Assembly: GCA_964371555.1 (NCBI GenBank)
Contig: CAYJMQ010000004.1
Coordinates: 1,380-65,379, forward strand
DNA: 64,000 nucleotides
Origin: an uncultured bacterium
GTDB taxonomy: Bacteria > Bdellovibrionota > JACOXK01 > 2-02-FULL-40-11
Direction of reading: 5' to 3'
A program made the translations under genes and the position numbers. The notes below the pieces were generated by a model. The model saw nothing but the letters and a program-made list of their open reading frames with translations. It was not told the DNA's origin and searched no databases. This document shows positions 15,983 to 45,978 of this stretch, piece by piece; within the stretch, counting starts at the first letter, position 1, and every line of letters starts with the position of its first letter.

Positions 15983-16861
15983 ATGACTAAGCCACTTATG
16001 GAATCCGATATCCCCTATTTGCCGCTCCTCTTTCACGGCAAGGTCCGGGACATTTATGACTTGGGAGAAGAGTTACTCCTTGTAGCAACCGACAGGCTCT
16101 CAGCCTTTGACGTTGTCTTTCCGACTCCGATCCCTGGCAAGGGGGAGATCCTGACTCAACTGAGCTACTTCTGGTTTCAGAAGATGAAGGAGATCATCCC
16201 CAACCACGTGTCCGAGCGACCTGTCGATGAGATCTTCAAGACGAAAGAGGATGTCGTCCTCTATGGTAAGCGCTCCATGCGCGTCAAAAAGACAACGCCG
16301 TTAGCCATCGAGGCCATCATACGCGGCTACCTTTCGGGCTCAGGCTGGAGCGATTATCAAAAAAACGGTGCCGTCTGCGGGATCAAGCTTCCGAATGATA
16401 TGAAGGAGTCCGAAAAAATCCCAGAACCCATTTTTACACCGGCCACAAAAGCTCCCCAAGGACAACATGACGAAAATGTTTCATTTGAGGTGGCCTGCAA
16501 GATCGTCGGTCGTGAGACGGCGGAAAAAGTCCGCCATGTGAGTCTGCGTATTTATAAGGAAGGATTGGCCCATGCGAATAGCCGTGGGCTTCTCTTGGCC
16601 GACACGAAGTTTGAGTTTGGTATCCTGAACGGGGAACTGATCCTCATCGATGAGGTCCTCACGCCGGATTCGTCCCGCTTTTGGCCGAAGAACCAATATC
16701 AGGTGGGGATATCGCCCCCGAGTTTCGACAAACAATTTGTGAGGGATTACCTCACGAAAATTGGCTGGAACAAGAAGCCACCAGCGCCGGAATTGCCGCC
16801 GAACATCGTTGAACAGACTGCCGCCCGTTATCGGGAGGCCTTGGAGCGCCTGACGAAATGA
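15983..16861 (+). CDS. purC: Phosphoribosylaminoimidazole-succinocarboxamide synthase (long form)
   Basis: Motifs GKVRDIYD, LLLVATDRLSAFDVV and LADTKFEFG are present. It is about 292 aa from the ATG at 15983. The ORF-track start at 15938 is also possible. Confidence 0.8.
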   Translation: MTKPLMESDIPYLPLLFHGKVRDIYDLGEELLLVATDRLSAFDVVFPTPIPGKGEILTQLSYFWFQKMKEIIPNHVSERPVDEIFKTKEDVVLYGKRSMRVKKTTPLAIEAIIRGYLSGSGWSDYQKNGAVCGIKLPNDMKESEKIPEPIFTPATKAPQGQHDENVSFEVACKIVGRETAEKVRHVSLRIYKEGLAHANSRGLLLADTKFEFGILNGELILIDEVLTPDSSRFWPKNQYQVGISPPSFDKQFVRDYLTKIGWNKKPPAPELPPNIVEQTAARYREALERLTK

Positions 16862-16902
16862 CCAAGAGGAGCGGGAAATAAAAATGATGCTGGGGGTTCT
16901 CA

Positions 16903-17310
16903 CTAGATCTTCCCCTTTAGCCTAGCAAGCCATTGTGGAGGGAAAACAAAATAAAGAACCAGTATCAGCACACCGAATGCCAAGTAGGCGGTCTTAAACA
17001 CCCACGGCTCAAAATTATAATAAAGAAGCCTGCTCACCCAGTAGCTGATGAATGAGCCACCATAACCCTGCTTTCCGGCCATCAAACGGAGCTTCTCCTC
17101 CCAAGTCGTCCATGGACAAGCAATACCCAATAAAGTTTGCCCCATCATTATGCCAACTAAAAGAAGATGAATATTACGAAACCATGAATTCAGCACAAAC
17201 GACCACCTAAAAACCTTACCCATAAGAACAAGAGGAACTGGCACGATAATACAAAGAACATACAGAAAATGAATGACCAAAAGAAGATCAGCTAAGAACA
17301 GAAGTAACAT
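16903..17310 (-). CDS. Hypothetical small membrane protein (DUF2784-like)
   Basis: A 135-aa ORF with 4 predicted TM helices. An ACPWTTWE motif is typical of DUF2784 as I recall it. Confidence 0.4.
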   Translation of the reverse strand: MLLLFLADLLLVIHFLYVLCIIVPVPLVLMGKVFRWSFVLNSWFRNIHLLLVGIMMGQTLLGIACPWTTWEEKLRLMAGKQGYGGSFISYWVSRLLYYNFEPWVFKTAYLAFGVLILVLYFVFPPQWLARLKGKI

Positions 17311-17513
17311 GATTTCAGAATAGTATTTGCATCGGTTAGAATGCCTAAATTTTCACTTCCACCGGTGGCAGTACTGGATGTACGAGCTGTCAACTTCGGA
17401 TTCACTGAGAGCAACACTATTTCCAGAGACTTCATAACCAAAGAAAGGGAGAATCAAGTGAACAGCTCTCAAACTAGCATTTTTCAAAGAATCAATTCTA
17501 AAAAATTAAACCC

Positions 17514-18257
17514 TTATCTCCGAACTGGCTCTATATAATTTCGAAAGAGAATTCCTACCTTTTGCAGCGCAACCTCCATTGCAAATCGAATCATAAAGTT
17601 GGGGAGAACGCTTGAAATGTTTTCTGTTTCCATCTCACCCTGGAAAATGGCAAGTAATGAATCTTCTTTTTCTCTGTTTCTGGAAACACGATGCCCCATC
17701 TGAGTGGAAACCAGTGTGGGTCTTATTTTTTGAACCGTCATCGTTCCCCTAAATCCAACAAATCGCTCATTTTCAAATTTTAATCCAAGAGAATTCGCGG
17801 GGACAACTTGAAAATTGATAATCGTGCGGTCAATCAGTTTTTCCTCATGGATTTTCATAAGGCTCTCCACTTCATAATCGATCAATGCTGTTTTTAATGC
17901 TGATTTTATATGAATGTAGGTTCCCCCCGTCTTTATCTTTTTTAACGAGGAGGCCTTGATATATTTGGGCGCGATCTTCTCCAAAGATTCGTAATCAGTC
18001 ATAAATTTCGTAACCTGTTCCAGAGAAACATGGTGAAGTATTCCCCCGGCTTTGACAGAAAGCATGCGTAAATTTTCTTTTTCAGGATGCGTAAGGGTAT
18101 TTACAACACTGATGATCTCGCGATTCATCATCCTCTTTTGGATTTCTGCCCGATGATAAAAATCAATGGCGGGTTTTAAATCGAGGGGGCAAAAAAGAAT
18201 AAGGACAAGGCAACAAAAGAAAACAGTTCCCCACCATTTTCCATTGGCCGTTTTCAT
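17514..18257 (-). CDS. Hypothetical secreted protein
   Basis: It has an N-terminal signal or anchor, WWGTVFFCCLVLILFCPL. It is 247 aa. It is the last gene of the LMF-like operon and follows the EF-hand lipoprotein after a 93-bp gap. I recognise no family. Confidence 0.4.
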   Translation of the reverse strand: MKTANGKWWGTVFFCCLVLILFCPLDLKPAIDFYHRAEIQKRMMNREIISVVNTLTHPEKENLRMLSVKAGGILHHVSLEQVTKFMTDYESLEKIAPKYIKASSLKKIKTGGTYIHIKSALKTALIDYEVESLMKIHEEKLIDRTIINFQVVPANSLGLKFENERFVGFRGTMTVQKIRPTLVSTQMGHRVSRNREKEDSLLAIFQGEMETENISSVLPNFMIRFAMEVALQKVGILFRNYIEPVRR

Positions 18258-18350
18258 TATGATCTACTAGAACCTTACATTTCAAGTGTAGCAGATGTTG
18301 ACAAAACATTGCAAGAAGTCGCTGGCGCCCATTTCCTTAAGGACATGGGC

Positions 18351-20696
18351 TTACGGCTGTTTCAAATATCCCCTCATGACATGCGCGAGGAGACTCGCGA
18401 CTTTAAGGCGGTCAGACCCGATTTTTGAAGATGAAAAGAGAAGATCGGCGCTGAATTCCGGGAGTTTTCCAAATGAGAGAGAATATTCAAAAACACGTCT
18501 GTAGATTACTTTTTTATCTATAAACGGCATCAAAAAATTATTGAGTAAAATAGATAAGAACTTTCCAATGGCGCCAAAGACCGGAATTTTTCCTGCGGCG
18601 CCCGGCTGACTGTTATATTCATCAACTAATTTTTCAATGATCGGTTCAAAGTGTCTATACATCAATCGGATCTCACTTTTGTTTAGAGTTCCATCCTGAT
18701 CATTGTCAAAACGCAGAAAAAGATGTTCGATCGTTCGCACAATCATAAAGATTGCTGACAGCTCTTTCACAGAAATAATTTGAGGGTGATTCCTTCCAAT
18801 AAGCTGAACGATCGTTTCAATGTATTGAATGATGTCCTTTTCTGACATCACCTTCATGGCCACTGGAAAATACCACCGAAGCGTTGGAACCTTTTTAAGC
18901 GATTCCACAAGATTTTCTCTGAGCAAGCCGATCTCTTTTGAGTTTGGGAACTGATGGTGGAAGGGGATGACCTCATGATCCCAATAAAACCAGGTTACAG
19001 CCCGATTGTTTTCAAGAATAAAGCTCGTCGCTTCGATAATTTCATAACGATCGAGAGTGTTGTCGCCATTGCTGTTATAGAGCATCTGATCTGAAAGGAG
19101 CATAAGAATTTTTCCAAGTGTCTTGGTGTCCAAATCAAGCGGATTGGTCCAAATTCTTCGATGGGGGGTCAGATTCTCTTTTTTATCCCCTTCGGTGAGC
19201 ATGTCGAGTCCTTTCACAAGCCTCTGGAGGGTCGCCAGAAATGATGTGAGCTCTATATCTCCAATTTCAGCAGGGGAGCCGGGATCAAGCGGAACCATGG
19301 AGAGCTTTCCATCGCGGTTTTTATCATAGGCTGAAATGATGCGATCGATCGGCACAAACGCTGTCTGCGTGAGTGTAAAGGAATGCTTTCGAATGACCTC
19401 GGTTTTCTGAAAGGGGGTTGTCCAAAGATAGAGCGTCTTTGTGAAATCAGAAATCATCAGCTTAAATTTTTTCCTGATCTCCGGGGAGAGATTTCCGTCA
19501 TGAGCCTTAATCCATGCCGCTATTTCTTCTTTTTTGATTTCATAAATTTCCCCTGAAAAAGAAAAAAGGGAAGAGGCCTTTCCATAAATATCGATACTTT
19601 CATCAAAAATTTTAAGAAGCTCTTTAATTTCATCGCGACCCAAAACTTGAGGATTTCCCCCAAATAATTGCATTTTAAACTCAAAGACCGCGGTCACAAA
19701 TTCGCGAGCCTTTCCACCGATATGCGCGTGAAGAAGCTCAAGGAGTGTAATTAACTCCTCACGTTTTATTTCTGAAAGATTTTTATCAAAAAATGCCTTT
19801 AGCAATACCTGCAAAAGATATTGATAGGCATGAAGGAAACTAAGAGAGTCTTTGGATGTCCAGATCTCTTTCTCCAGATGCTGGTTGATTTGAGTGACCA
19901 GATGGTAGACCGATTCCAGATATGTTAAGAATTCTGGCATCTCACGGGCGACAACATTCTCTTCGCTCTCTCCAAAAAGCATACGATTGGCGAGATAGCC
20001 AGCCCGAATGTAGTGCGATCCGATCTCGTCTTCGAGCCCTTCCCAAAGCTGATATTGTCTGAGAAGGAGCTCTTTTGGAGTATCATGATCGATCAGACCG
20101 TGATTATTTTCAAACATCGCGCGGATCAGATCGATGTAACCGCTAAAGAGTCTTTTCCTCAGTTCCCAGTAGAGATCTTCTTTTTTATGGGTCTCTCTGT
20201 ATGAAAAAGAGAGCTTCGAAAGCCGGCTGATTTTTTGAGAGCCCCTCCTGACCCTTTTTATAACCTCTTCAATTTCAGAAAAACGGATTGAGTCCCCTCG
20301 TTCACCCAAAAGAAGATTACGCGCCGAAAAGAGGCGGTCGACCCAGATCTGAAGTTCCTCAGGATCACCGAGAATTTTTGAGTTGAGTAGTGTTTCTATT
20401 TCCCTTCTCGTGAGCTCCCCTTTTTTGCGTGGTTCAATTTGTTCATCGGCCTCATGGAGTATGGAGAGCAGACATTCTGTCGTTTGGCTAATTTCATTTT
20501 CACCCAGGGTTCCCATTTCAAAATGATTTTTAATTTTATCAAGATCGATTTGGCAGGAACCGTCGCTGAGGGCCGGATCATTTGTGAGGTCGAGCCGCTC
20601 TTTATTTGATCTGGGCGAAGGGGCTTTTTCTCCAACCCAGCCGCAGCCAGTTATCCACACAAACACAAGACTTAAAAGAAGATATTTAAAAAACAT
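18351..20696 (-). CDS. Large lipoprotein with EF-hand calcium-binding loops
   Basis: A 781-aa ORF. The lipobox is LVFVWITGC. There is a canonical EF-hand loop DNDQDGTLNKSE plus the further DxNxDG-like loops DKNRDGKLS and NGDNTLDRYE. It is mostly helical. It overlaps the upstream OMP gene by 11 nt. Confidence 0.5.
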   Translation of the reverse strand: MFFKYLLLSLVFVWITGCGWVGEKAPSPRSNKERLDLTNDPALSDGSCQIDLDKIKNHFEMGTLGENEISQTTECLLSILHEADEQIEPRKKGELTRREIETLLNSKILGDPEELQIWVDRLFSARNLLLGERGDSIRFSEIEEVIKRVRRGSQKISRLSKLSFSYRETHKKEDLYWELRKRLFSGYIDLIRAMFENNHGLIDHDTPKELLLRQYQLWEGLEDEIGSHYIRAGYLANRMLFGESEENVVAREMPEFLTYLESVYHLVTQINQHLEKEIWTSKDSLSFLHAYQYLLQVLLKAFFDKNLSEIKREELITLLELLHAHIGGKAREFVTAVFEFKMQLFGGNPQVLGRDEIKELLKIFDESIDIYGKASSLFSFSGEIYEIKKEEIAAWIKAHDGNLSPEIRKKFKLMISDFTKTLYLWTTPFQKTEVIRKHSFTLTQTAFVPIDRIISAYDKNRDGKLSMVPLDPGSPAEIGDIELTSFLATLQRLVKGLDMLTEGDKKENLTPHRRIWTNPLDLDTKTLGKILMLLSDQMLYNSNGDNTLDRYEIIEATSFILENNRAVTWFYWDHEVIPFHHQFPNSKEIGLLRENLVESLKKVPTLRWYFPVAMKVMSEKDIIQYIETIVQLIGRNHPQIISVKELSAIFMIVRTIEHLFLRFDNDQDGTLNKSEIRLMYRHFEPIIEKLVDEYNSQPGAAGKIPVFGAIGKFLSILLNNFLMPFIDKKVIYRRVFEYSLSFGKLPEFSADLLFSSSKIGSDRLKVASLLAHVMRGYLKQP

Positions 20697-36357: not shown

Positions 36358-37599
36358 TTAAAACGAATAACGAGCTTCCAAAATAGTGCTGTTTTTTCCA
36401 TCCAGATGTTCCGGATGTAGAAGTCCTTCCAAGGTGAAACGCATATTCGGACTCGGTTGGGCAACGAAACTAATGACATAACGACTAAAATCTTGAAAAT
36501 CGCTTTCATGGTAATTAAATTCTTCGTAACGAAAGACAGGAGTCAACCATGCCCAAAAAAACTGATTATAAAGAAGCTCGATGGCAAAACTGTTTGTATT
36601 GAGCTTTCTTCCAAGTGCGTCCATGTTGCCATCTCTGCCTGCCTGGAAAAGCCCGCTCAATTCAAACGAGTGGTATTCAACACCTATATCTCCCCCCACG
36701 CGAAAAAAACTGTTTCTAAAAGCGGCATTATCGGTCGTATAGTTCGACCTCCCAAAATAACCGAAGCCCCCCGCACGTAACCCCTCGCTCATATCCCCTT
36801 CCCCATTAAAATGCATGCCGACCGGCTTCCAAAGAAGCCTCGCATAGTAATCTTTTTGTGATCCGATGTCATTCAAATTGCCACTGCCATTGACCACCGC
36901 GGCCGAATAAGAAAGCCGATCCGCTACAATACCGTTGAGCTCTGCGCCAAGCTGGCTATTTCTCATTCTGAATGCTGAGGGAGAAAGATTGGGACCAGCC
37001 GTTACAACGCGTGTGTCGCTATAAAGATAGTTTCTCAGCATTAATCTTCTGTGAGCAGAAAAGGCATTGGTGGCTGGTTCAAAATAACCGAGCTGAAGAT
37101 TGAATGCGTTTTTGGGCAAGCGCGCGCCGAAAAGATCATAAATCCCCAAAAACATTCGCGAAAAAGGGGTGCCGGGAAAGGTACCTTCATCAATGGCTGT
37201 AAAATCTGCCCAAAATGAAAAGGTTTCTCCCAGACTATCACCATAAAAAAATTCGAGTTCATGAAGCTCAAACGTAAAACGACTGTCCTCCACTCTTTGT
37301 GCCCTCAGATGTCCCACTCCGCCCGCGGGGAAAATAGCAGCGACCTTAGACGGCCACTCCCCCCCCAAAGGAATCTGCTTGATCTTTGCCATCTCCTCAT
37401 CCCCTTTTGGAAATCGATAGCCATGAAGACGAAATGACTCGCCATAAGCATTAAGTTTGGGATAAGCGGTGTGACAAAGATTACAGCTTGTTCCATATTT
37501 TCGCGCAAAATAAGGCATTCCAAATGATAAGGACGGCAACAATATGAGACCGACAACAAAGATTGTGGTACGCATTTTTCTCCCCCTTTTGTAGTTCAT
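36358..37599 (-). CDS. Outer-membrane beta-barrel protein with an N-terminal CxxCH haem-binding motif
   Basis: It has a signal peptide. The mature N-terminus carries SCNLCHTAYPKLN (C-x-x-C-H). The rest has amphipathic beta-strand patterning. The C-terminus ...ILEARYSF ends in Phe. Confidence 0.45.
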   Translation of the reverse strand: MNYKRGRKMRTTIFVVGLILLPSLSFGMPYFARKYGTSCNLCHTAYPKLNAYGESFRLHGYRFPKGDEEMAKIKQIPLGGEWPSKVAAIFPAGGVGHLRAQRVEDSRFTFELHELEFFYGDSLGETFSFWADFTAIDEGTFPGTPFSRMFLGIYDLFGARLPKNAFNLQLGYFEPATNAFSAHRRLMLRNYLYSDTRVVTAGPNLSPSAFRMRNSQLGAELNGIVADRLSYSAAVVNGSGNLNDIGSQKDYYARLLWKPVGMHFNGEGDMSEGLRAGGFGYFGRSNYTTDNAAFRNSFFRVGGDIGVEYHSFELSGLFQAGRDGNMDALGRKLNTNSFAIELLYNQFFWAWLTPVFRYEEFNYHESDFQDFSRYVISFVAQPSPNMRFTLEGLLHPEHLDGKNSTILEARYSF

Positions 37600-37627: not shown

Positions 37628-38902
37628 TCATCGTCCGACCATTGCCAGAATATCTGCTCGAGCAAGATGATAATTCTTTCGTAGTTCCGAATATCTTTTC
37701 TTATATTCGATATATTTTTGCGTTGCGCTAAGAACATCTGGAGAGTTTTTAACACCTCTCTTATATTCGCCCAGTGTTCGATCGAAATAAAGTTTCCCTA
37801 ACTTCAAGTTTTTCTCCCCAATATGAACAAGCTCGTGAATGACTTTTAATTCTGATTTCATTGCCTCAAAACGAGCTTCTAATTCTTTTTGACGTTGAAG
37901 AGAAAGACTCTCAAATGCCATGGCTTGAAGACCTGCGGCAGCGCCTTCTGCTTTAGATTGAAAACCATCAAAAATATCAAGAGTTACTTTAATCCCGCCA
38001 ACAGTTTCATATCGAGCATTCCGTGTGGCTGCTTCTCGTTCTCTCTGCGTATACAAAAAATACCCCGCATAACCATCAATACTGGGAGTCCACCAACGAT
38101 AAAATTGTTTTTTTTGAAATTCAAAAGCTTCTTGATTTGCTTTTAATTGTAAAATTTCTCGATGAGAATTAATTAAATCCGCCTTTAAAGCCAAAAGGCC
38201 CTCATCGTGCTGATGTGGAGCGGCATCAATAGTTTCAAGATTTGTCTCTGGAGACAATCCCAATACAGCGTTTAACTCACGTTGAAAATTAGAAGACATC
38301 AATTCAGCCTGTCTCAAGTCTTGTTCAAGTTGAATTTTATTGATTTCAAACTCAATTCTGTCTGTAAGGGTTGCTAAGCCTGCTTGAATACGTTTTTCAG
38401 AAGCTCCTTTATTTTTTTCATTAAGATCTAGCGCTTCTTTAAAAATGTTTTGTGTCTCTTTTTGGAAAACTAAATTCCAATAAATTCCTCTTGCCTTCGT
38501 TAATTCCTCAAAATATATTTTTTGCTGTTCCTGCTGAGAAGCATTCAACTGTTTTTCTCGGACAGATCCTTCTAATGAATCCCGCCCCCCTTTAAAAAGA
38601 TTTATTTTTGTCTCAATTCCTCCAAAGGGTTGTTGCCTGGTGTCGCCAAATTCCCCGGATTTGAATGATTCCCCTCCAACTGAAACACCTAACGTAGGAA
38701 GATAAGACCGCAAAAGATACCCTGTGCGAGCTTCTCCCGATTGAACTGAAAAAGTGGCTCCCTGAACACTTTTATTTTTTTCTTTTACAAGGCTTGGTAA
38801 ATCTTCAAAGTTAATTTTAAGAGCGGTGGTTCCCGTTCCTCTTGAAGGAACCACCGCAATTGTTAAAATAATAATTTTAATAAATGATTTTTTATTCAAC
38901 AT
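37628..38902 (-). CDS. Outer-membrane efflux factor (TolC/CzcC family)
   Basis: It has a signal peptide. It is 424 aa with a duplicated helical/beta architecture. It is the last gene of the RND operon. Confidence 0.65.
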   Translation of the reverse strand: MLNKKSFIKIIILTIAVVPSRGTGTTALKINFEDLPSLVKEKNKSVQGATFSVQSGEARTGYLLRSYLPTLGVSVGGESFKSGEFGDTRQQPFGGIETKINLFKGGRDSLEGSVREKQLNASQQEQQKIYFEELTKARGIYWNLVFQKETQNIFKEALDLNEKNKGASEKRIQAGLATLTDRIEFEINKIQLEQDLRQAELMSSNFQRELNAVLGLSPETNLETIDAAPHQHDEGLLALKADLINSHREILQLKANQEAFEFQKKQFYRWWTPSIDGYAGYFLYTQREREAATRNARYETVGGIKVTLDIFDGFQSKAEGAAAGLQAMAFESLSLQRQKELEARFEAMKSELKVIHELVHIGEKNLKLGKLYFDRTLGEYKRGVKNSPDVLSATQKYIEYKKRYSELRKNYHLARADILAMVGR

Positions 38903-38906
38903 ATTT

Positions 38907-39323
38907 TTAATTTTGAGGAGGCTCTACCTGAAAAGTAACTGTCTCCTTTTTGCCTTTATAATCTACGATAAGTTCTAAGAGATATCTATGGGTACCTTTG
39001 ATTTGAGGTTTTGCTTCAAAGTGATCGTTGACAATATCTAATTTAATCGTTTGTTTTTTCTTTTTTGGTATCTGCACGGCTGCCACAATAGAAATATCTT
39101 TAAGAGATATAGGAGAGAGTTTATGGGTTAAAGGGTAGAGCTTTATCCCGGATGAATCATTCACAAGCTCGATATAAAGCAGGGTTACCCCTTTCACTGT
39201 TCCTCCATGAGGAGCTTGAATGGCGCCAGGGAGAACATCGTGTCCTTCATGTGCTTGAACAAAATCCCAGGACGTTATTAATCCCAGGATGAAAAAAGTT
39301 AAAATAAGATATCGATATTTCAT
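38907..39323 (-). CDS. Small periplasmic His-containing protein (candidate metal-binding accessory protein)
   Basis: A 138-aa ORF with a signal peptide. The mature protein begins HEGHDVLPGAIQAPHGG. It is wedged between the RND pump and the OMF. It overlaps the pump stop by 4 nt. It resembles neither an MFP nor CusF by eye. Confidence 0.4.
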   Translation of the reverse strand: MKYRYLILTFFILGLITSWDFVQAHEGHDVLPGAIQAPHGGTVKGVTLLYIELVNDSSGIKLYPLTHKLSPISLKDISIVAAVQIPKKKKQTIKLDIVNDHFEAKPQIKGTHRYLLELIVDYKGKKETVTFQVEPPQN

Positions 39324-42300
39324 GTGTCATGACCTCCTTCGATAACAGGTTTTTGATAAGTTGCAGCTCTTTCAGCCGATTTTCTTCCAAAATGGAAGAA
39401 GACTGTTGGGGTTACAATCATATCCAAAAGAGTGGAGCTAAAAAGTCCCCCCACAATAACAACAGCAACCGGGTGCAAAATTTCTTTACCAGCTTGTCCT
39501 TTAGCCAGAACAAAAGGAATAAGCGCTAACATGGCTGTCAATGCTGTCATTAAGACAGGGACAAGTCGTTCAAGAGAACCTCGAATGACCATCTGTCTAG
39601 AAAAATTTTCACCTTCATGTTTCATGAGATGAAGATAATGAGAAATCATCATAATGCCATTTCGGCTGGCAATGCCGCAAAGCGTAATAAAGGCTACCAA
39701 TGTTGCTACGGACAAAATGCGAGAAGAAAGAAAAATAGCAATAAGGCTCCCAATTAAAGCCATGGGAATATTAAGCATAATTTGGATGGCAATAAAGCTG
39801 GATTTGAAATGTCCATACAAAACCAGAAATATACCTAAGAGAGAAAGGATGCCCAAAAAAGTAATGAGTTTTGAAGCTTTTTGCTGACTTTCAAATTGAC
39901 CTCCAAAATTAATAAAATAACCATCAGGTAATTTTATATTTTTGCTGATTTTAGATTTTATATCTTGAATTAAACTATCTAAGTCTCGACCGGATGCGTT
40001 GGCTTGAACCACGATTCTTCTTTGAACGTTTTCTCGATTGATAATATTTGGGCCTGTCGATTCATATACATCAGCTACCTCTTCCAAAGTTACCCGTGTA
40101 CCATCGGGCATAATTTTTATAAGTGTTTTTTTCATAAGTTCAATGTTAGAACGGGAACTGTCATCAAATCTCATAAATACATTAAAAAATCTTTGGTTCT
40201 CCAAAGTATAGGCTACAATTTCACCATGTAATGCCATCTCAAGCATCGATGCAAGACTACCCAGAACAATGCCATATTTGGCTGCTTCTTCTCTTAATAA
40301 CTGAATTTTTACTTGAGGGATGAGCACCTGTTGCTCTATTTGCAGGTCAACCAATCCCCGGGTACCTTCAATGGCCTTGTGAATTTCAGCTGCCTTGTTT
40401 CTTAATGTCGTTAGATCTGTTCCGAAAATCTTAATCGCAATTTGAGCACGAACCCCTGACAGCAAATGATCTAATCTGTGGGATATTGGCTGGCCAATAT
40501 TTACATAAATGCCAGAAATGGTGGTTAATTTTTCTCGAATGTCATTTAAAACAGCTTCTCGAGATCGATGAGATTTGGCCTTAAAATCGACATCGATTTC
40601 AGAATAATGGACACCTTCAGCATGTTCATCCATTTCTGCGCGTCCTGTTCTCCTGGCAACTGATTTCACCTCAGAAACACTTAAAATAAGTTGTTCAGCC
40701 TGGGTACCAATTTTATTACTTTCTTCAAGAGAAATACCCGGATTTGCTAAGACAGTAATGGTAGCTGTGCCTTCGTTGAATTTAGGCAAAAATTCTTTTC
40801 CCATAAATAAAATTAATGTCAATGAGGCAAGAAAGAGTATGCCTAACCCACCCATCACAATTTTGGGATGGTCTAGCCCCCAATTGAGAAATTTTTCATC
40901 CCAATATTTTAAAAAGCGCACAAACCATCCTTCATCTCGCTCCATGAGTTTGCCTTTGGTTAAAAGATAGGAACAAAGAGCAGGGGTTAGGGTTAAAGAT
41001 ACGATGAGAGAAGCTACTAAAGAAACACTATAAGCAATTCCTAATGGAATAAAAAGCCTTCCTTCTATTCCACTTAAATAAAAGAGAGGAAGAAAAACAA
41101 GAACAACAATAATGGTCGCAAAAACAATAGAGTTTCTTACTTCGGAAGAAGCATTATAAATAACTTCTAAAACGGGCAAAGGTTTTCCCAGTTTTTTATT
41201 TTCTCTAAGCCTGCGAAAAATATTTTCTACATCCACAATAGCATCATCTACCAATTCACCGATCGCAACAGCTAATCCGCCTAATGTCATCGTGTTTACC
41301 GTAATGCCAAAAAGTTTCATCACAATGGCAGTTATGACAAAAGAGAGAGGAATGGCTGTGAGGGTAATCATTGTTGTCCGAAAATTAAGTAAGAAAATAA
41401 AAAGTACGATGATGACAAGAATAGCGCCATCCCGCAGTGCTTCTTCGACATTATGAATGGCAGCTTCAATAAAGTGGGATTGCTTAAATAAGTCCTTTTC
41501 TAATTTAACATCGCTTGAAAATCCTTTTGCAATTTCATCGAGCGCTTTATCAATACGCTTTGTGAGCTCTACCGTATTTGCTCCAGGTTGTTTTTGAATA
41601 CTCAATATAACAGCCGGTTTGGCATTGACACTTCCATCTCCTCTTTTAATTTGAGCGCCAATTTTAACTTGAGCGACATCTTGAACAAGTTTTGGAACAC
41701 CAAAATGCAGCCCCACCACTGAATTAAGAATATCTTCTTCTGAACGAACCATTCCAATATTTCTTATTAGAAATTCTTTCTTCTCCTGATCAATAAATCC
41801 ACCGGTTGTATTTTGACTTAAATGGGTCAGCGAGTGTTCAATGTCTTCCAGGGTTAATTGAAAATTTTGAATTTTTTCCGCAGAAAGTAAAATTTGATAT
41901 TGCCGCACACCTCCTCCGATAGCAATCACTTGTGCAACACCGGGAATACTTAGAAGCCTTGGACGAATCACCCAATCTGCCAATGTTCTAAGTTCGAGAG
42001 GAGAAATTTCTCCTTTTTCAGAAATTAAACCAAGAAGCTGTATTTCCCCCATAATGGAAGCAATGGGCCCCATTACCGGGATTGCATTCTTTGGTAATTT
42101 TTCTTTTGCAAGTTGAAGTTTTTCAGATACAAGTTGTCTATTTCTATAAATATCCGTTCCCCAGTCAAACTCGACATAAACAACAGAAAGACCAATCCCG
42201 GAAGAAGAACGCACACGTTGAACACCTGGCAATCCATTTAAAACCGTTTCAAGTTGAAGAGTAACCAAAGTCTCTACTTCTTCAGGAGCCATCCCTGGCG

Positions 42301-42457
42301 CTTCAGTTAAAATAGTTACTGTGGGGCGATTTAAATCAGGGAATACATCTACAGGCAGATGCATCAGTACATAGGTGCCGTAAACCAGCAAAAAAGCTGC
42401 GCTAGAGACAACAAAAAGTCGATTGGTCAAAGAAAAACGAATAATTTTATTAAGCAT
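39320..42457 (-). CDS. Heavy-metal efflux RND transporter (CusA/CzcA family)
   Basis: A 1045-aa ORF with 12 TM helices and two large periplasmic loops. The N-terminus MLNKIIRFSLTNRLFVVSSAAFLLVYGTYVLMHLPVDVFPDLNRPTV aligns with CusA/CzcA. Confidence 0.8.
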   Translation of the reverse strand: MLNKIIRFSLTNRLFVVSSAAFLLVYGTYVLMHLPVDVFPDLNRPTVTILTEAPGMAPEEVETLVTLQLETVLNGLPGVQRVRSSSGIGLSVVYVEFDWGTDIYRNRQLVSEKLQLAKEKLPKNAIPVMGPIASIMGEIQLLGLISEKGEISPLELRTLADWVIRPRLLSIPGVAQVIAIGGGVRQYQILLSAEKIQNFQLTLEDIEHSLTHLSQNTTGGFIDQEKKEFLIRNIGMVRSEEDILNSVVGLHFGVPKLVQDVAQVKIGAQIKRGDGSVNAKPAVILSIQKQPGANTVELTKRIDKALDEIAKGFSSDVKLEKDLFKQSHFIEAAIHNVEEALRDGAILVIIVLFIFLLNFRTTMITLTAIPLSFVITAIVMKLFGITVNTMTLGGLAVAIGELVDDAIVDVENIFRRLRENKKLGKPLPVLEVIYNASSEVRNSIVFATIIVVLVFLPLFYLSGIEGRLFIPLGIAYSVSLVASLIVSLTLTPALCSYLLTKGKLMERDEGWFVRFLKYWDEKFLNWGLDHPKIVMGGLGILFLASLTLILFMGKEFLPKFNEGTATITVLANPGISLEESNKIGTQAEQLILSVSEVKSVARRTGRAEMDEHAEGVHYSEIDVDFKAKSHRSREAVLNDIREKLTTISGIYVNIGQPISHRLDHLLSGVRAQIAIKIFGTDLTTLRNKAAEIHKAIEGTRGLVDLQIEQQVLIPQVKIQLLREEAAKYGIVLGSLASMLEMALHGEIVAYTLENQRFFNVFMRFDDSSRSNIELMKKTLIKIMPDGTRVTLEEVADVYESTGPNIINRENVQRRIVVQANASGRDLDSLIQDIKSKISKNIKLPDGYFINFGGQFESQQKASKLITFLGILSLLGIFLVLYGHFKSSFIAIQIMLNIPMALIGSLIAIFLSSRILSVATLVAFITLCGIASRNGIMMISHYLHLMKHEGENFSRQMVIRGSLERLVPVLMTALTAMLALIPFVLAKGQAGKEILHPVAVVIVGGLFSSTLLDMIVTPTVFFHFGRKSAERAATYQKPVIEGGHDT

Positions 42458-42477
42458 TTTCTTGTATTTTAAATCTC

Positions 42478-42870
42478 TTATTCGAGACGGCTCGAAACCA
42501 ACCGTATAAGCTCGTCAATTTTTTCTTCGATTTTAACCTTATTATTTTCTTTCATGGTCATTCGTACACAACTTCGAATATGTTGTTTTAAAATGGCCAT
42601 TTCAATAAACTTAAGTCCCGCTGCGACGGCTTTAAATTGAATTAGGATATCGACACAATATCTCCGTTCTAAAATCATGTTTTCGATACCGCTCATCTGC
42701 CCTTTGACTTTGCTCAAGCGTGAAAGAAGTGATGTGTAATCAGGATGGTTTTTAGATGGGTCAGTGGGCACAGTTGCATCCTGGCAATGTTTACACTTTT
42801 TATGCGAATCACCTCCTAAAATTACATTTTCCATATATAGAATTCTCCTTTCTCTCTTTCTTATTGACAT
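42478..42870 (-). CDS. CsoR/RcnR/FrmR-family metal-sensing transcriptional repressor with an N-terminal Cys/His-rich extension
   Basis: The core is KVKGQMSGIENMILERRYCVDILIQFKAVAAGLKFIEMAILKQHIRSCV, which is the DUF156 signature with the conserved Cys and His ligands. The extension is HKKCKHCQD. The likely start is MENV at 42834. Confidence 0.75.
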   Translation of the reverse strand: MSIRKRERRILYMENVILGGDSHKKCKHCQDATVPTDPSKNHPDYTSLLSRLSKVKGQMSGIENMILERRYCVDILIQFKAVAAGLKFIEMAILKQHIRSCVRMTMKENNKVKIEEKIDELIRLVSSRLE

Positions 42871-42896
42871 ATACCCTATGGGGGGTATATGTCAAT
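42865..42896. promoter_or_regulatory. Palindromic operator embedded in divergent sigma70-like promoters
   Basis: TTGACATATACCC-TATGGG-GGGTATATGTCAA. The 13-bp arms are perfect. The ATACCC...GGGGTAT core resembles the B. subtilis CsoR operator. TTGACA -35 boxes lie on both strands, each about 16-17 nt from a TATATG -10-like hexamer. Confidence 0.55.
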
Positions 42897-43055: not shown

Positions 43056-43733
43056 ATGATACGACATATTTTTTTAGGAACCTGGATCATAGGTTCATTG
43101 CTTATACTAGGGTGCCAAGATGAAGATCAATCGTTTAAAGAGTTACAAAAAAAGACTGGAAAATTTGGTATGGAAGGCGAGTTTGAAGCAGAAAATGAAA
43201 GGGCCATTAAAATGGAAGAGGATCTTTCCAGAAGACATCATTTTTATCAGTCCTTAAAAGGAACGTATGAAGGAACTCTTCAAGAAGAAGGCGGAAGTTT
43301 TAATTTAAGAATTACTTTTGCTCCTAGTCTTCCACCATATCCGAAAGATCCTAGTCGCATTAGAACTATTGAGGAAATAACATCAGATCTTACAAATTTG
43401 TATTTTAATGTACAAGTCATTCAATGGAGTCCTCAAAATCCTCTAACTTCTGTAGGATGTCGGGTAGAAGGGGTCAGACCAGATATGATTACAGGAGAAG
43501 TTTTTATCTCTTCAGAAATTTGTCCCAATTTTTATGCTCTTCTTTTATCTGATGCCACCTCTCAAGATAGCATAGGAACATTAAACAATAATCAAGAGAA
43601 AGAACTTGCAACAAGCCTTGCTCAAGCCATTATTGAAGGTCAACTCACAACGGTTTCTCAAATTCAAGGTCAAGTACGTCCTACGACAAATGCTGCTATT
43701 TATGAGTTTATCGCAAAAAGGGTTGAGATGTGA
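43056..43733 (+). CDS. Hypothetical lipoprotein
   Basis: The lipobox is LLILGCQ. It is 225 aa. It is the first gene of the divergent operon. I recognise no family. Confidence 0.45.
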   Translation: MIRHIFLGTWIIGSLLILGCQDEDQSFKELQKKTGKFGMEGEFEAENERAIKMEEDLSRRHHFYQSLKGTYEGTLQEEGGSFNLRITFAPSLPPYPKDPSRIRTIEEITSDLTNLYFNVQVIQWSPQNPLTSVGCRVEGVRPDMITGEVFISSEICPNFYALLLSDATSQDSIGTLNNNQEKELATSLAQAIIEGQLTTVSQIQGQVRPTTNAAIYEFIAKRVEM

Positions 43734-45004
43734 AGAATATCCTTAATGCTTTTTTTATTTTCTTCTTTTCTTTATTTTCTTTGGAATCTTTGGCTTCATC
43801 TGACTCTTTAACTATCTCTCTTGAAGAGATTACTCAAAAAATAAGTACAGAAAATTATCTGGTTTTAGAAAATGCCCAGCGTGTTTATCAGGCAAAAGAA
43901 GCCATCGAAGTTTCGAGAGGAAATCTTCTTCCTCATCTTAACTTTTGGAAAGTAGCTGCAATCACTTTTGAACCGATGGCAGCTATTGGCATGGTTGAAG
44001 ATATAGCTCCCTTTTTGGTACCTGCAAATTGGTTTAGAGTTAAAGAACAAGAGATACTTTATTTGGCTACTCAAGAATCTTATCGAGCTCTCTGGGCCAA
44101 TGAATTGATGACTGGTCGAAATCTCTATTTTAAAATTTTGTTTGATGAAATTCTTTTGGAAAAAATTCAGGAAAATAAAAATCTAATTAATCAAATTTTG
44201 AATATTTCAAAAATGCGAGAGAAATTAGGCGGACAAAGGCAAACTATTTCTCAAGATATTGAGGTAAGAGTTTTAGCCCTCCAGGAAGATATTCGATCTT
44301 TAGAAGTTTTAATCAATGAGGAACTTAATTCTCTTTCTTATTTGATGGGACATGCAAGTGAGGTGGAAATTAAACCACAACCCATTGATCTTCCCGAATT
44401 TGAAAATTTTGAACCGTTGAATTACACAGATTTTGAATTTAGAGTGCTAGATACAGCTCCTGAATTGAGACAGATGGAATATTTAGTGAAGGTAGCTGAC
44501 TTGGTTAAAAAAGAAGAAGAGTTTTCATTTTTAGGGGGATCGAATTTAAGTCGAGGCGTTGCAGGAGGAGTTTTTGATGGACTTCCAATGGGTGTAGGAG
44601 GGCTTGGATTTGGGCTTGCCCCTGCAATTCGTGTGGCTAAGGCGCAAAAAGAAATTTTAAAAATTCAAAAAAGAGGAATCGAAGAGGTTCTTAAAAGGCA
44701 ACTTAAAAATTTAGTCAATAATTATAATTTAGACTTAGAAAATCATGTGAATTTAAAAAGACGCTCAGAGCTTACAAAAAATATTTTAGACAACCTCTTT
44801 AGAAGATTAACCTTGGGAGAAGAAATAGAAGTTTTAGATCTTGTGGAAGCTTCAAGAAATTATATTCAAGCATCCAGTTCCTTTTTTGCCATCAATTATC
44901 GTTTTTTAGCCAATGAAGATAAGCTTTCACGTCTTATTTTTCATGGAGACTATGATAAAAAGCCAGCCGGTTTAGAAGAAGTAGAAAAGAGAAGCAAAGA
45001 ATAA
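43730..45004 (+). CDS. Outer-membrane efflux protein-like (TolC-family) protein
   Basis: It has a signal peptide. It is 424 aa. The N-terminal LTISLEEITQKISTENYLVLENAQRV is the OMF helix signature, and the repeat halves are duplicated. It overlaps the upstream stop by 4 nt. Confidence 0.5.
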   Translation: MKNILNAFFIFFFSLFSLESLASSDSLTISLEEITQKISTENYLVLENAQRVYQAKEAIEVSRGNLLPHLNFWKVAAITFEPMAAIGMVEDIAPFLVPANWFRVKEQEILYLATQESYRALWANELMTGRNLYFKILFDEILLEKIQENKNLINQILNISKMREKLGGQRQTISQDIEVRVLALQEDIRSLEVLINEELNSLSYLMGHASEVEIKPQPIDLPEFENFEPLNYTDFEFRVLDTAPELRQMEYLVKVADLVKKEEEFSFLGGSNLSRGVAGGVFDGLPMGVGGLGFGLAPAIRVAKAQKEILKIQKRGIEEVLKRQLKNLVNNYNLDLENHVNLKRRSELTKNILDNLFRRLTLGEEIEVLDLVEASRNYIQASSSFFAINYRFLANEDKLSRLIFHGDYDKKPAGLEEVEKRSKE

Positions 45005-45472
45005 ATGAAAAAAATTTTAAAACTCAGTTTTTTATTTTTAATTTTTACAGGATGTAACGAAGAGGAGGAAATTCAAAAATGGATTGATAAGGTAGATAAT
45101 CTCCGATCAAAAGTAGAACAAGAATTACCTATTACTCCCTATCAAGATTCTCAACATCAGGCTTTTAAAGAATACTTTTCCGAACTTAATCAAATGATAT
45201 TAAAATTAGGGGATGATGAAGAACTCATAAAGCCATTTAATGGGGTTGTTTCAAAAAGTGATTTGGTCGTTTTATGTCCGAAAATCTTTTTGTCTAAAGA
45301 AAATTGGATGCTTCTCATGGGAAGATGTCAAAAAAATCGTTTCTTTTTATGTGCTGAAGAAGTTCGTTCTTATCCTACCATCGTCTCTCGGCTCAGAGAA
45401 CACTTAGGTACGGAACAACAAAAAAGATTTGACGAAGTATCAGCATGTCGGGAAATATCAGAAGTTCAATAG
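45005..45472 (+). CDS. Hypothetical lipoprotein
   Basis: The lipobox is LIFTGCN. It is 155 aa. It starts 1 nt after the upstream stop. Confidence 0.45.
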   Translation: MKKILKLSFLFLIFTGCNEEEEIQKWIDKVDNLRSKVEQELPITPYQDSQHQAFKEYFSELNQMILKLGDDEELIKPFNGVVSKSDLVVLCPKIFLSKENWMLLMGRCQKNRFFLCAEEVRSYPTIVSRLREHLGTEQQKRFDEVSACREISEVQ

Positions 45473-45857: not shown

Positions 45858-45978
45858 AATTTCCGCGATTAAGTCCAGTCAACTTCCATGTAGTTTTTTG
45901 CGATGAGTGATTTTTAAATGACACAACTCCTATTTTTTGCTTGTCATGAGAACAGCGCTTTTCTATACTCCGCTTGAG

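Follow-up and report, generated by a model that had tools for sequence, protein, structure and literature searches.

Gene Organization

We examined a heavy-metal efflux operon in a 64-kb stretch of contig CAYJMQ010000004.1 from an uncultured member of the Bdellovibrionota. This stretch is called the window below, and coordinates are positions within it unless a comparison locus is named. The operon runs along the minus strand (42870..37628) and encodes a CsoR/RcnR-family repressor, a resistance–nodulation–division (RND) permease, a secreted protein of 138 amino acids (aa), and a TolC-family outer-membrane factor (OMF). The original prediction had listed the genes in this order, and the open reading frames (ORFs) lie exactly so, in agreement with Pfam and NCBIfam (Table 1). 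Packing is tight: repressor and pump genes are 20 nt apart, the pump stop codon overlaps the start of the small ORF (ATGA), and 4 nt separate the small ORF from the OMF gene. The permease is a member of the heavy-metal efflux (HME) RND family, matching TIGR00914 over its full length and above the cutoff. The OMF shows two stretches of PF02321, the repeats expected of a TolC-family protein, and its match to TIGR01844 (E = 6e-18) falls below the cutoff.

What the operon lacks is a gene for a membrane-fusion protein (MFP), the periplasmic adaptor that canonical tripartite systems encode together with the pump. Its absence from the operon and flanks, claimed in the original prediction, is borne out by a six-frame search of the whole window for complete or cryptic MFP sequences. 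Neither four phmmer queries (CusB and AcrA of E. coli, plus a pair of MFPs from related loci) nor a profile built from 8 diverse MFPs returned an MFP gene or fragment at E ≤ 10. The same profile retrieved every known MFP of the comparison loci at E < 1e-100. Pfam likewise detected no MFP domain among the nine ORFs of 36.3–45.9 kb.

Table 1. Genes, motifs, and related features in the window and in comparison loci
Feature	Positions	Strand	Residues (aa)	Remarks
CsoR/RcnR-family repressor	42478..42870	-	130 (longest ORF)	PF02583 Trns_repr_metal, E 8.6e-22
RND permease	39320..42457	-	1045	PF00873, 894 bits; TIGR00914 CusA/CzcA, 814 bits (cutoff 701)
Secreted protein	38907..39323	-	138	signal peptide, His motifs, Ig-like β-sandwich
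TolC-family OMF	37628..38902	-	424	PF02321 OEP, E 1.6e-29, two repeats
Operator-like palindrome GACATATACCC-N6-GGGTATATGTC	42866..42893			read from sequence and repeat search
Signal peptide of 138-aa protein	39252-39323	-	~1-24	predicted cleavage between VQA and HEGHD
HEGHD motif of 138-aa protein	39237-39251	-		
APHGG motif of 138-aa protein	39201-39215	-		
Pump transmembrane helix 4 motif GELVDDAIVDVEN	41222-41260	-	400-412	
Pump DEHAEGVH motif	40607-40630	-	610-617	periplasmic loop
Pump HRLDH motif	40466-40480	-	660-664	periplasmic loop
Divergent unit, ORF 1	43056-43733	+	225	lipoprotein
Divergent unit, ORF 2	43730-45004	+	424	weakly OEP-like protein
Divergent unit, ORF 3	45005-45472	+	155	lipoprotein
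Upstream paralogue	L001 6346-6762	-		
Upstream paralogue	L004 6149-6610	-		
Upstream paralogue	L006 6376-6786	+		
Upstream paralogue	L008 1846-2286	-		
Upstream paralogue	L011 4291-4686	+		
Upstream paralogue	L012 6353-6766	+		
Upstream paralogue	L013 395-862	+		
Upstream paralogue	L014 6259-6840	+		
Upstream paralogue	L015 3051-3500	+		
His-motif Ig-like modules	L021 5351-6994, 10159-10881			
His-motif Ig-like modules	L020 7003-7536, 8877-9488			
His-motif Ig-like module	L027 5191-5823			
His-motif Ig-like module	L028 5189-5815			

A Conserved Module without an Adaptor

The adaptor-less arrangement is more general than this single operon. A further 17 distinct loci (L001, of which L007 is a duplicate, L004–L006, L008–L015, L018, L019, and L024–L026), each examined with 8–10 kb of flanking DNA, keep the gene order pump–small ORF–OMF, with hardly any DNA between the genes and again without an internal MFP. 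Pumps of these loci are 61–80% identical to that of the window and the small proteins 35–62% (about 32% in L024–L026). The OMF is the least conserved partner, at 23–55% overall and 23–36% in most loci. All named sources belong to the Bdellovibrionota, comprising Bacteriovoracaceae, Bdellovibrionales, and Pseudobdellovibrionaceae metagenome-assembled genomes (MAGs) as well as Bdellovibrio bacteriovorus and Bdellovibrio sp. HCB337, both with complete genomes. Among complete Bdellovibrio genomes, CP168971.1, CP178621.1, and that of B. reynosensis carry the module. That the same arrangement occurs in complete genomes of cultured Bdellovibrio led us to reject an assembly or annotation artefact as the source of the missing adaptor.

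MFP genes are also scarce around the module. None lies within the flanks examined in 14/17 loci, and those close to the module in L004, L006, and L008 are part of separate CusCBA-like clusters, whose pump (aligned in L004) is 28% identical to the module pump. The OMF gene directly follows the small gene in 18/18 modules, and the gap is often no more than a few bases. This position is occupied by at least two OMF lineages.

In ten loci (L007 again duplicating L001), the gene directly before that of the pump encodes another, more distant paralogue of the small protein. It has the consensus AHGEDKPGPHGGxIRMPGAFHTELV, two conserved Cys residues, and a His-rich C-terminus. The window and L005 lack it, and the CsoR gene takes its place there. 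We considered whether this paralogue might be the leftover of an MFP N-terminal domain and discarded the idea, as its profile has no significant match to the N-terminal domain of the Magnetospirillum MFP or to the 'cep' proteins described below. Literature searches found no description of the module in Bdellovibrio, nor of the small-protein family.

Further RND operons without an MFP gene are present in the same Bacteriovoracaceae/Bacteriovoracia MAGs (L001 14862-19235, duplicated in L007; L012 12750-16794 on the minus strand and 16797-19147 on the plus strand). They include an OEP–RND pair, whose pump carries DFG..DGS..IEN in transmembrane helix 4, and an ArsR–152-aa–RND–CDF cluster facing an OEP–102-aa–lipoprotein operon. 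The DFG..DGS..IEN motif resembles the HME3a signature, DFG-DGS-VEN. RND operons without an adaptor gene may be a wider habit of the Bdellovibrionota.

Class of the Pump

At the family level, the original prediction was right to call the pump CusA/CzcA-type, given its TIGR00914 match; at the level of subtype the label does not hold. The pump is 30% identical to CusA, and T/Y/H replace the Met triad of that protein (M573/M623/M672). Across the pump homologues, the three positions are filled by N, T, A, or S, by Y or V, and by H, with the last being His in all module pumps. The transmembrane Met pairs of CusA are mostly replaced by Leu, Asp, or Cys. As an internal control, the CusA-like pump of L004 keeps M/M/M. 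The features of CusA-type Cu(I)/Ag(I) pumps (HME4) are therefore missing. CzcA/CnrA-type pumps (HME1/2) carry DFG-X3-DGA-X3-VEN in transmembrane helix 4 (PMC3637150), where the window pump has AIGELVDDAIVDVEN rather than DFG-DGA-VEN. It thus shows neither the CusA triad nor the CzcA signature; the original prediction had proposed checking for a Met versus an Asp/Glu relay.

Two His motifs in periplasmic loops of the pump, HAEGVH and HRLDH, point elsewhere. Klonowska et al. (PMC7060636) described both as conserved motifs of the proximal site in NieA, the RND protein of the nieIC-cep-nieBA operon of Cupriavidus neocaledonicus STM 6070; they placed NieA in HME5 or, as a new class of their own proposal, in class 6, and on motifs alone suggested that it exports nickel. 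Literature searches returned no follow-up work on Nie. Judged by its sequence motifs, the window pump belongs to the little-studied NieA-like clade and is neither CusA-like nor CzcA-like, and we propose that its periplasmic entry site would use His and Glu ligands in place of the CusA Met triad. The nearest pumps outside the Bdellovibrionota are all plasmid-borne and come from Magnetospirillum (60% identity), Hymenobacter (55–58%), and Acidovorax, Variovorax, and Azospirillum (52–53%).

The 138-aa Secreted Protein

The small ORF described in the original prediction as a His-bearing periplasmic protein is real and conserved. It has 30 close homologues of 124–148 aa. Their alignment shows a nearly invariant Ala at position −1 of the predicted cleavage site, and cleavage after VQA would likely leave His as the first mature residue. 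The mature protein has 6 His and contains neither Met nor Cys. H25, G27, H28, P32, P38, H39, G40, G41, E52, L53, and a C-terminal FQxEP are invariant. When 1.84 billion cluster representatives were searched with the family profile (E ≤ 1e-3), the family grew to 370 clusters at 50% identity. Nearly all of the best 150 of these 370 are stand-alone proteins of 112–171 aa, roughly 125–150 aa being typical; the exceptions are a few shorter fragments and one 219-aa protein (P0062).

In P0062, a single reading frame runs from the C-terminal end of an RND pump into a homologue of the small protein. Whether this reflects a true fusion or a frameshift or gene-call artefact, it documents the adjacency of pump and small protein in another lineage.

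Neither the 138-aa ORF nor its family members have a Pfam or NCBIfam match, even in a relaxed Pfam scan; a precomputed PF25971 flag on one member (P0218) was not reproduced in Pfam scans. A search with the family against the sequences of PDB chains gave nothing significant. The original prediction had suggested a fold comparison. An AlphaFold2 (AF2) model (predicted local distance difference test, pLDDT, 84) comprises the signal peptide, a flexible His-rich segment (aa 24–41), and an immunoglobulin (Ig)-like β-sandwich (aa 42–133). Its best fold match is the H. pylori copper-resistance protein CrdA (score 10.7), followed by a DUF4426 protein (10.4) and the periplasmic metal-binding proteins Tp34 (9.2), HftA (9.1), and FtrA-P19 (8.9). 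Foldseek also ranked CrdA first, in its apo and Ag-bound forms (E = 1.3e-3; target-normalized TM-score 0.60–0.64). The CopC/CrdA family thus provides the closest fold, but the 138-aa protein has no Pfam CopC match and no Met-rich loop. If the predicted cleavage is correct, the N-terminal His of the mature protein would recall His1 of CopC.

Two other identities were considered and set aside. CusF is an OB-fold protein, whereas the model is an Ig-like sandwich; the family profile matches E. coli CusF at E = 0.83, and the mature protein has no Met. A truncated MFP pseudogene has next to no chance of being correct, given the large family, its conserved length and residues, its own Ig-like fold, and the lack of any similarity to MFPs. 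By sequence or structure, no lipoyl, β-barrel, membrane-proximal, or hairpin element of an MFP was recognized.

The original prediction had offered two roles for this protein, novel chaperone or adaptor substitute. We consider a dedicated periplasmic metal chaperone most likely, because the fold resembles periplasmic metal-binding proteins and the His-only chemistry matches the His site of the pump. Tempering this reading, Ig-like topology is common and identity to CrdA is 12–18%, with no sequence-level relationship detected, so that the model would support the role rather than prove homology to CrdA. The second role, that of adaptor substitute, does not fit the homologues that coexist with adaptors in the operons considered next.

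Sister Operons That Keep an Adaptor

A normal MFP is encoded in 4/4 of the operons compared from Acidovorax, Variovorax, Magnetospirillum, and Hymenobacter. The Acidovorax and Variovorax plasmid operons read TolC, a 208–210-aa 'cep'-like protein, MFP, and pump, and the 131-aa gene directly 3' of the pump matches the small-protein profile (~35–39 bits, E ~1e-12). The Magnetospirillum gene after the pump is labeled 'cytochrome c', and its N-terminal half matches the same profile (E ~1e-7; 6e-5 against all loci); the MFP there, at 547 aa, includes an N-terminal 'cep'-like domain. Hymenobacter has a 177-aa homologue fused to HMBD just upstream of TolC–hypothetical–MFP–pump.

Since homologues or, in Magnetospirillum, a related domain co-occur with MFPs in these four operons, the small protein appears from sequence to be an ancestral accessory of NieA-like pumps, normally working alongside an adaptor, and not to have arisen as a replacement for one. 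Among orthologous pumps of other phyla, an MFP gene immediately precedes the pump gene in every case, which argues that loss of the adaptor is derived and stable. By this comparison the Bdellovibrionota module has lost both MFP and 'cep' and placed the OMF gene last, with ten loci having gained or kept the second paralogue.

NieA-like operons of Proteobacteria and Bacteroidota use several His-motif Ig-like modules (Table 1). The 'cep' protein is membrane-anchored through a C-terminal transmembrane helix, and has an AHGGEDHG or AHGPNGEH N-terminus. The Magnetospirillum MFP carries it as an N-terminal fusion.

Regulation and Metal Identity

The repressor was assigned to the CsoR/RcnR family by its PF02583 match, its Cys...His-X3-Cys ligands, and a palindromic operator-like site. 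Its ligand pattern is C72...H97-X3-C101 (C-H-C), with an extra N-terminal HKKCKHC stretch, and its best NCBIfam match is RicR (51 bits, below cutoff). The palindrome, whose two 11-nt arms match perfectly, lies between a TTGACA box and the start of the repressor gene, within a 186-bp divergent region. In L005 and L015, ATACCC-N-GGGTAT sites likewise adjoin either the pump or the CsoR gene. Because ATG 42870 falls inside the palindrome and an AAGGAG Shine–Dalgarno sequence stands 9 nt upstream of the in-frame ATG 42834, the latter is probably the true start, giving a protein of 118 aa. CsoR-type control, which the original prediction had singled out, is a trait of a minority of the related loci. 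Besides the window, L005, L013, and L015 have a CsoR gene with the module and L012 a fragment, and the remaining loci have none.

We favor copper as the transported metal, with nickel as a serious alternative. The leaning toward copper derives from the repressor, whose C-H-C set suggests Cu(I) sensing, and from neighboring genes: a multicopper oxidase, CopB, and a CusCBA-like cluster next to the L004 module, and P1B-ATPases bearing HMBD next to the modules of L012 and L025. Three points weigh on the other side. The NieA motifs shared by the pump were proposed as nickel sites. The lack of Met and Cys in the mature small protein argues against Cu(I). Finally, His42 of the repressor could be a fourth ligand and would then make the protein similar to the nickel sensor InrS (H-C-H-C).

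Genomic Setting of the Operon

The efflux operon shares its 186-bp regulatory region with a divergent three-gene unit that has no Pfam family apart from a weak OEP match of its 424-aa protein. Both operons lie in a low-GC island at ~37.6–45.9 kb (guanine–cytosine content 0.31–0.41, versus 0.44–0.50 in the flanks), one end of which coincides exactly with the 3' end of the OMF gene and the other of which precedes an apt-like gene at 45937. This common island suggests that the two operons were acquired jointly by horizontal transfer. Together with an IS3-type transposase that adjoins the module in L012, it also suggests that the module moves and works as a self-contained unit.

The 225-aa lipoprotein of the divergent unit was examined as a candidate replacement adaptor. 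Its AF2 model (pLDDT 88) consists of a 45-residue helix (aa 23–67) and an 8-stranded closed β-barrel, and structure comparison gave no MFP-like matches. The divergent trio is also found divergent from a canonical OEP–MFP–RND operon in L022/L023. We rejected the candidate because its fold is not MFP-like and the trio accompanies an adaptor-bearing operon in L022. A homologue of the lipoprotein is present in L012.

Beyond the low-GC island, 28 nt past the OMF gene, starts a secreted 413-aa ORF (36358-37599, minus strand). Near its N-terminus is a CNLCH motif of the CxxCH heme type; the ORF has no Pfam or NCBIfam match, and its proximity to the module is not kept in the other loci.

Proposed Mechanism and Pump–Channel Coupling

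The best overall explanation, in which we have fair confidence, is that the locus is a NieA-like RND efflux operon with a dedicated His-based periplasmic carrier, from which the adaptor gene has been lost. We infer the following sequence of events. The CsoR-type repressor, bound to the promoter palindrome, would keep the operon off until metal arrives. The 138-aa protein would be secreted and cleaved after VQA, exposing His as its first residue, and may capture a divalent metal through the flexible HEGH...PHGG segment and the conserved Glu52. It would deliver this metal to the His/Glu site of the pump, in the role that CusF plays for CusA, and the pump would expel it at the expense of the proton gradient through the co-encoded TolC-like channel. 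The co-encoded adaptor has been lost from the module throughout the Bdellovibrionota, with the small protein not its replacement.

How pump and channel are then coupled could be explained in three ways. An adaptor could be supplied in trans from another locus, a possibility that we tentatively rank first by a rough estimate. Dependence on a host adaptor is awkward, however, because few MFPs lie nearby, those few serve very different pumps, and the module appears to be mobile. The window and the flanks of most loci are without an MFP, and the nearby MFPs belong with CusA-like pumps whose distance from the module pump is far wider than that within the AcrB/AcrD pair sharing AcrA. The low-GC island around the module and its apparent transfer in one piece also speak against this possibility.

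Direct docking of the pump on the co-encoded OMF, with the small protein, alone or together with its paralogue, possibly stabilizing or gating the junction, would need no adaptor at all. We consider this unlikely but worth weighing, since 0/18 modules include an MFP, yet the OMF is always retained in the operon. The constant MFP beside orthologous pumps of other phyla, the signs of a self-contained unit (the low-GC island and the L012 transposase), and the second paralogue beside the pump in ten loci are further points consistent with it. The pump itself tells a different story: module pumps have no lineage-specific indels relative to adaptor-dependent orthologues (57–60% identity), the single difference being 1 residue, which argues against structural adaptation to direct docking. 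The small protein is a soluble 12-kDa domain unlike any MFP domain, and its coexistence with MFPs in sister operons means that its ancestral role was not bridging. The OMF, moreover, is conserved less well than its partners, contrary to what a specific direct interface would lead one to expect, and to our knowledge every characterized tripartite RND pump needs an adaptor. If direct docking did occur, the module would encode the first RND exporter of tripartite type to dispense with an adaptor.

A third option, which we regard as improbable, is that the pump alone moves metal from the cytoplasm or inner membrane to the periplasm, where the small protein buffers or carries it and the OMF serves as a general exit or belongs to other systems. 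RND proteins without adaptors occur in other contexts, and CusA alone reportedly transports metal in proteoliposomes. The poor conservation of the OMF relative to the pump and the presence of at least two OMF lineages at the same position are also in keeping with this option. The invariable position of the OMF gene directly 3' of the small gene is, however, hard to explain without functional coupling, and TolC-like channels rest in a closed state that normally requires a partner for opening. Transport by the pump alone, or an OMF with an unrelated function, makes up the remainder beside in-trans supply and direct docking.

The question has consequences beyond this operon. Adaptors, which are drug targets, are held to be essential links between RND pumps and their channels. 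An adaptor-less module that is kept across a whole phylum and appears to move as a unit raises two possibilities, that an adaptor is shared between distant pumps or that coupling can proceed without one. Carriage of the module by Bdellovibrio bacteriovorus makes the question genetically testable in a culturable organism.

Comparison with Known Systems

A precedent for an RND pump that uses an adaptor encoded elsewhere is AcrD of E. coli and Salmonella, which has no adaptor gene of its own and borrows AcrA or AcrE (PMC8446912). It differs from the window pump in having no OMF gene beside it and in borrowing from a closely related paralogous system, whereas the OMF is co-encoded here. Borrowing by AcrD involves closely related pumps; no closely related adaptor-bearing paralogue of the window pump was seen in the 8–10 kb flanks of the loci or in the 64-kb window.

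The H. pylori Crd system (crdA-crdB-czcB-czcA), which provides the nearest fold, is different in two respects: CrdA (PDB 9LL2, 9LL4) contains no His, its metal-binding site being a Met-rich loop, and the system has an adaptor. Closer to the window operon are nieIC-cep-nieBA and the matching plasmid operons, which share the HAEGVH and HRLDH motifs and whose plasmid orthologues are 52–60% identical to the window pump; the Hymenobacter pump also has the transmembrane helix 4 motif GELVDDAIV. The likeness to the STM 6070 Nie system is drawn from published motifs and these plasmid orthologues. Nie-type operons are arranged as OMF–'cep'–MFP–pump, with an adaptor and a membrane-anchored 'cep' protein, both of which are missing here, where the OMF gene stands at the end.

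In functional layout, the operon can be compared with E. coli CusCFBA, which likewise combines a heavy-metal RND pump, an OMF, and a small secreted metal carrier in one operon. Cus has the adaptor CusB and two-component control, its carrier CusF is an OB-fold protein with Met, His, and Trp ligands rather than a His-only Ig-like sandwich, and CusA uses a Met triad that the window pump lacks. The two systems are nevertheless alike in that the ligand chemistry of the carrier matches that of the pump, Met in CusF and CusA and His in the window operon. The analysis defines a sizeable unannotated family of periplasmic His-rich Ig-like proteins, apparently the chaperone partners of NieA-like pumps and a recognizable accessory gene for this clade, and raises the hypothesis of a His relay parallel to the Met relay of CusF and CusA.

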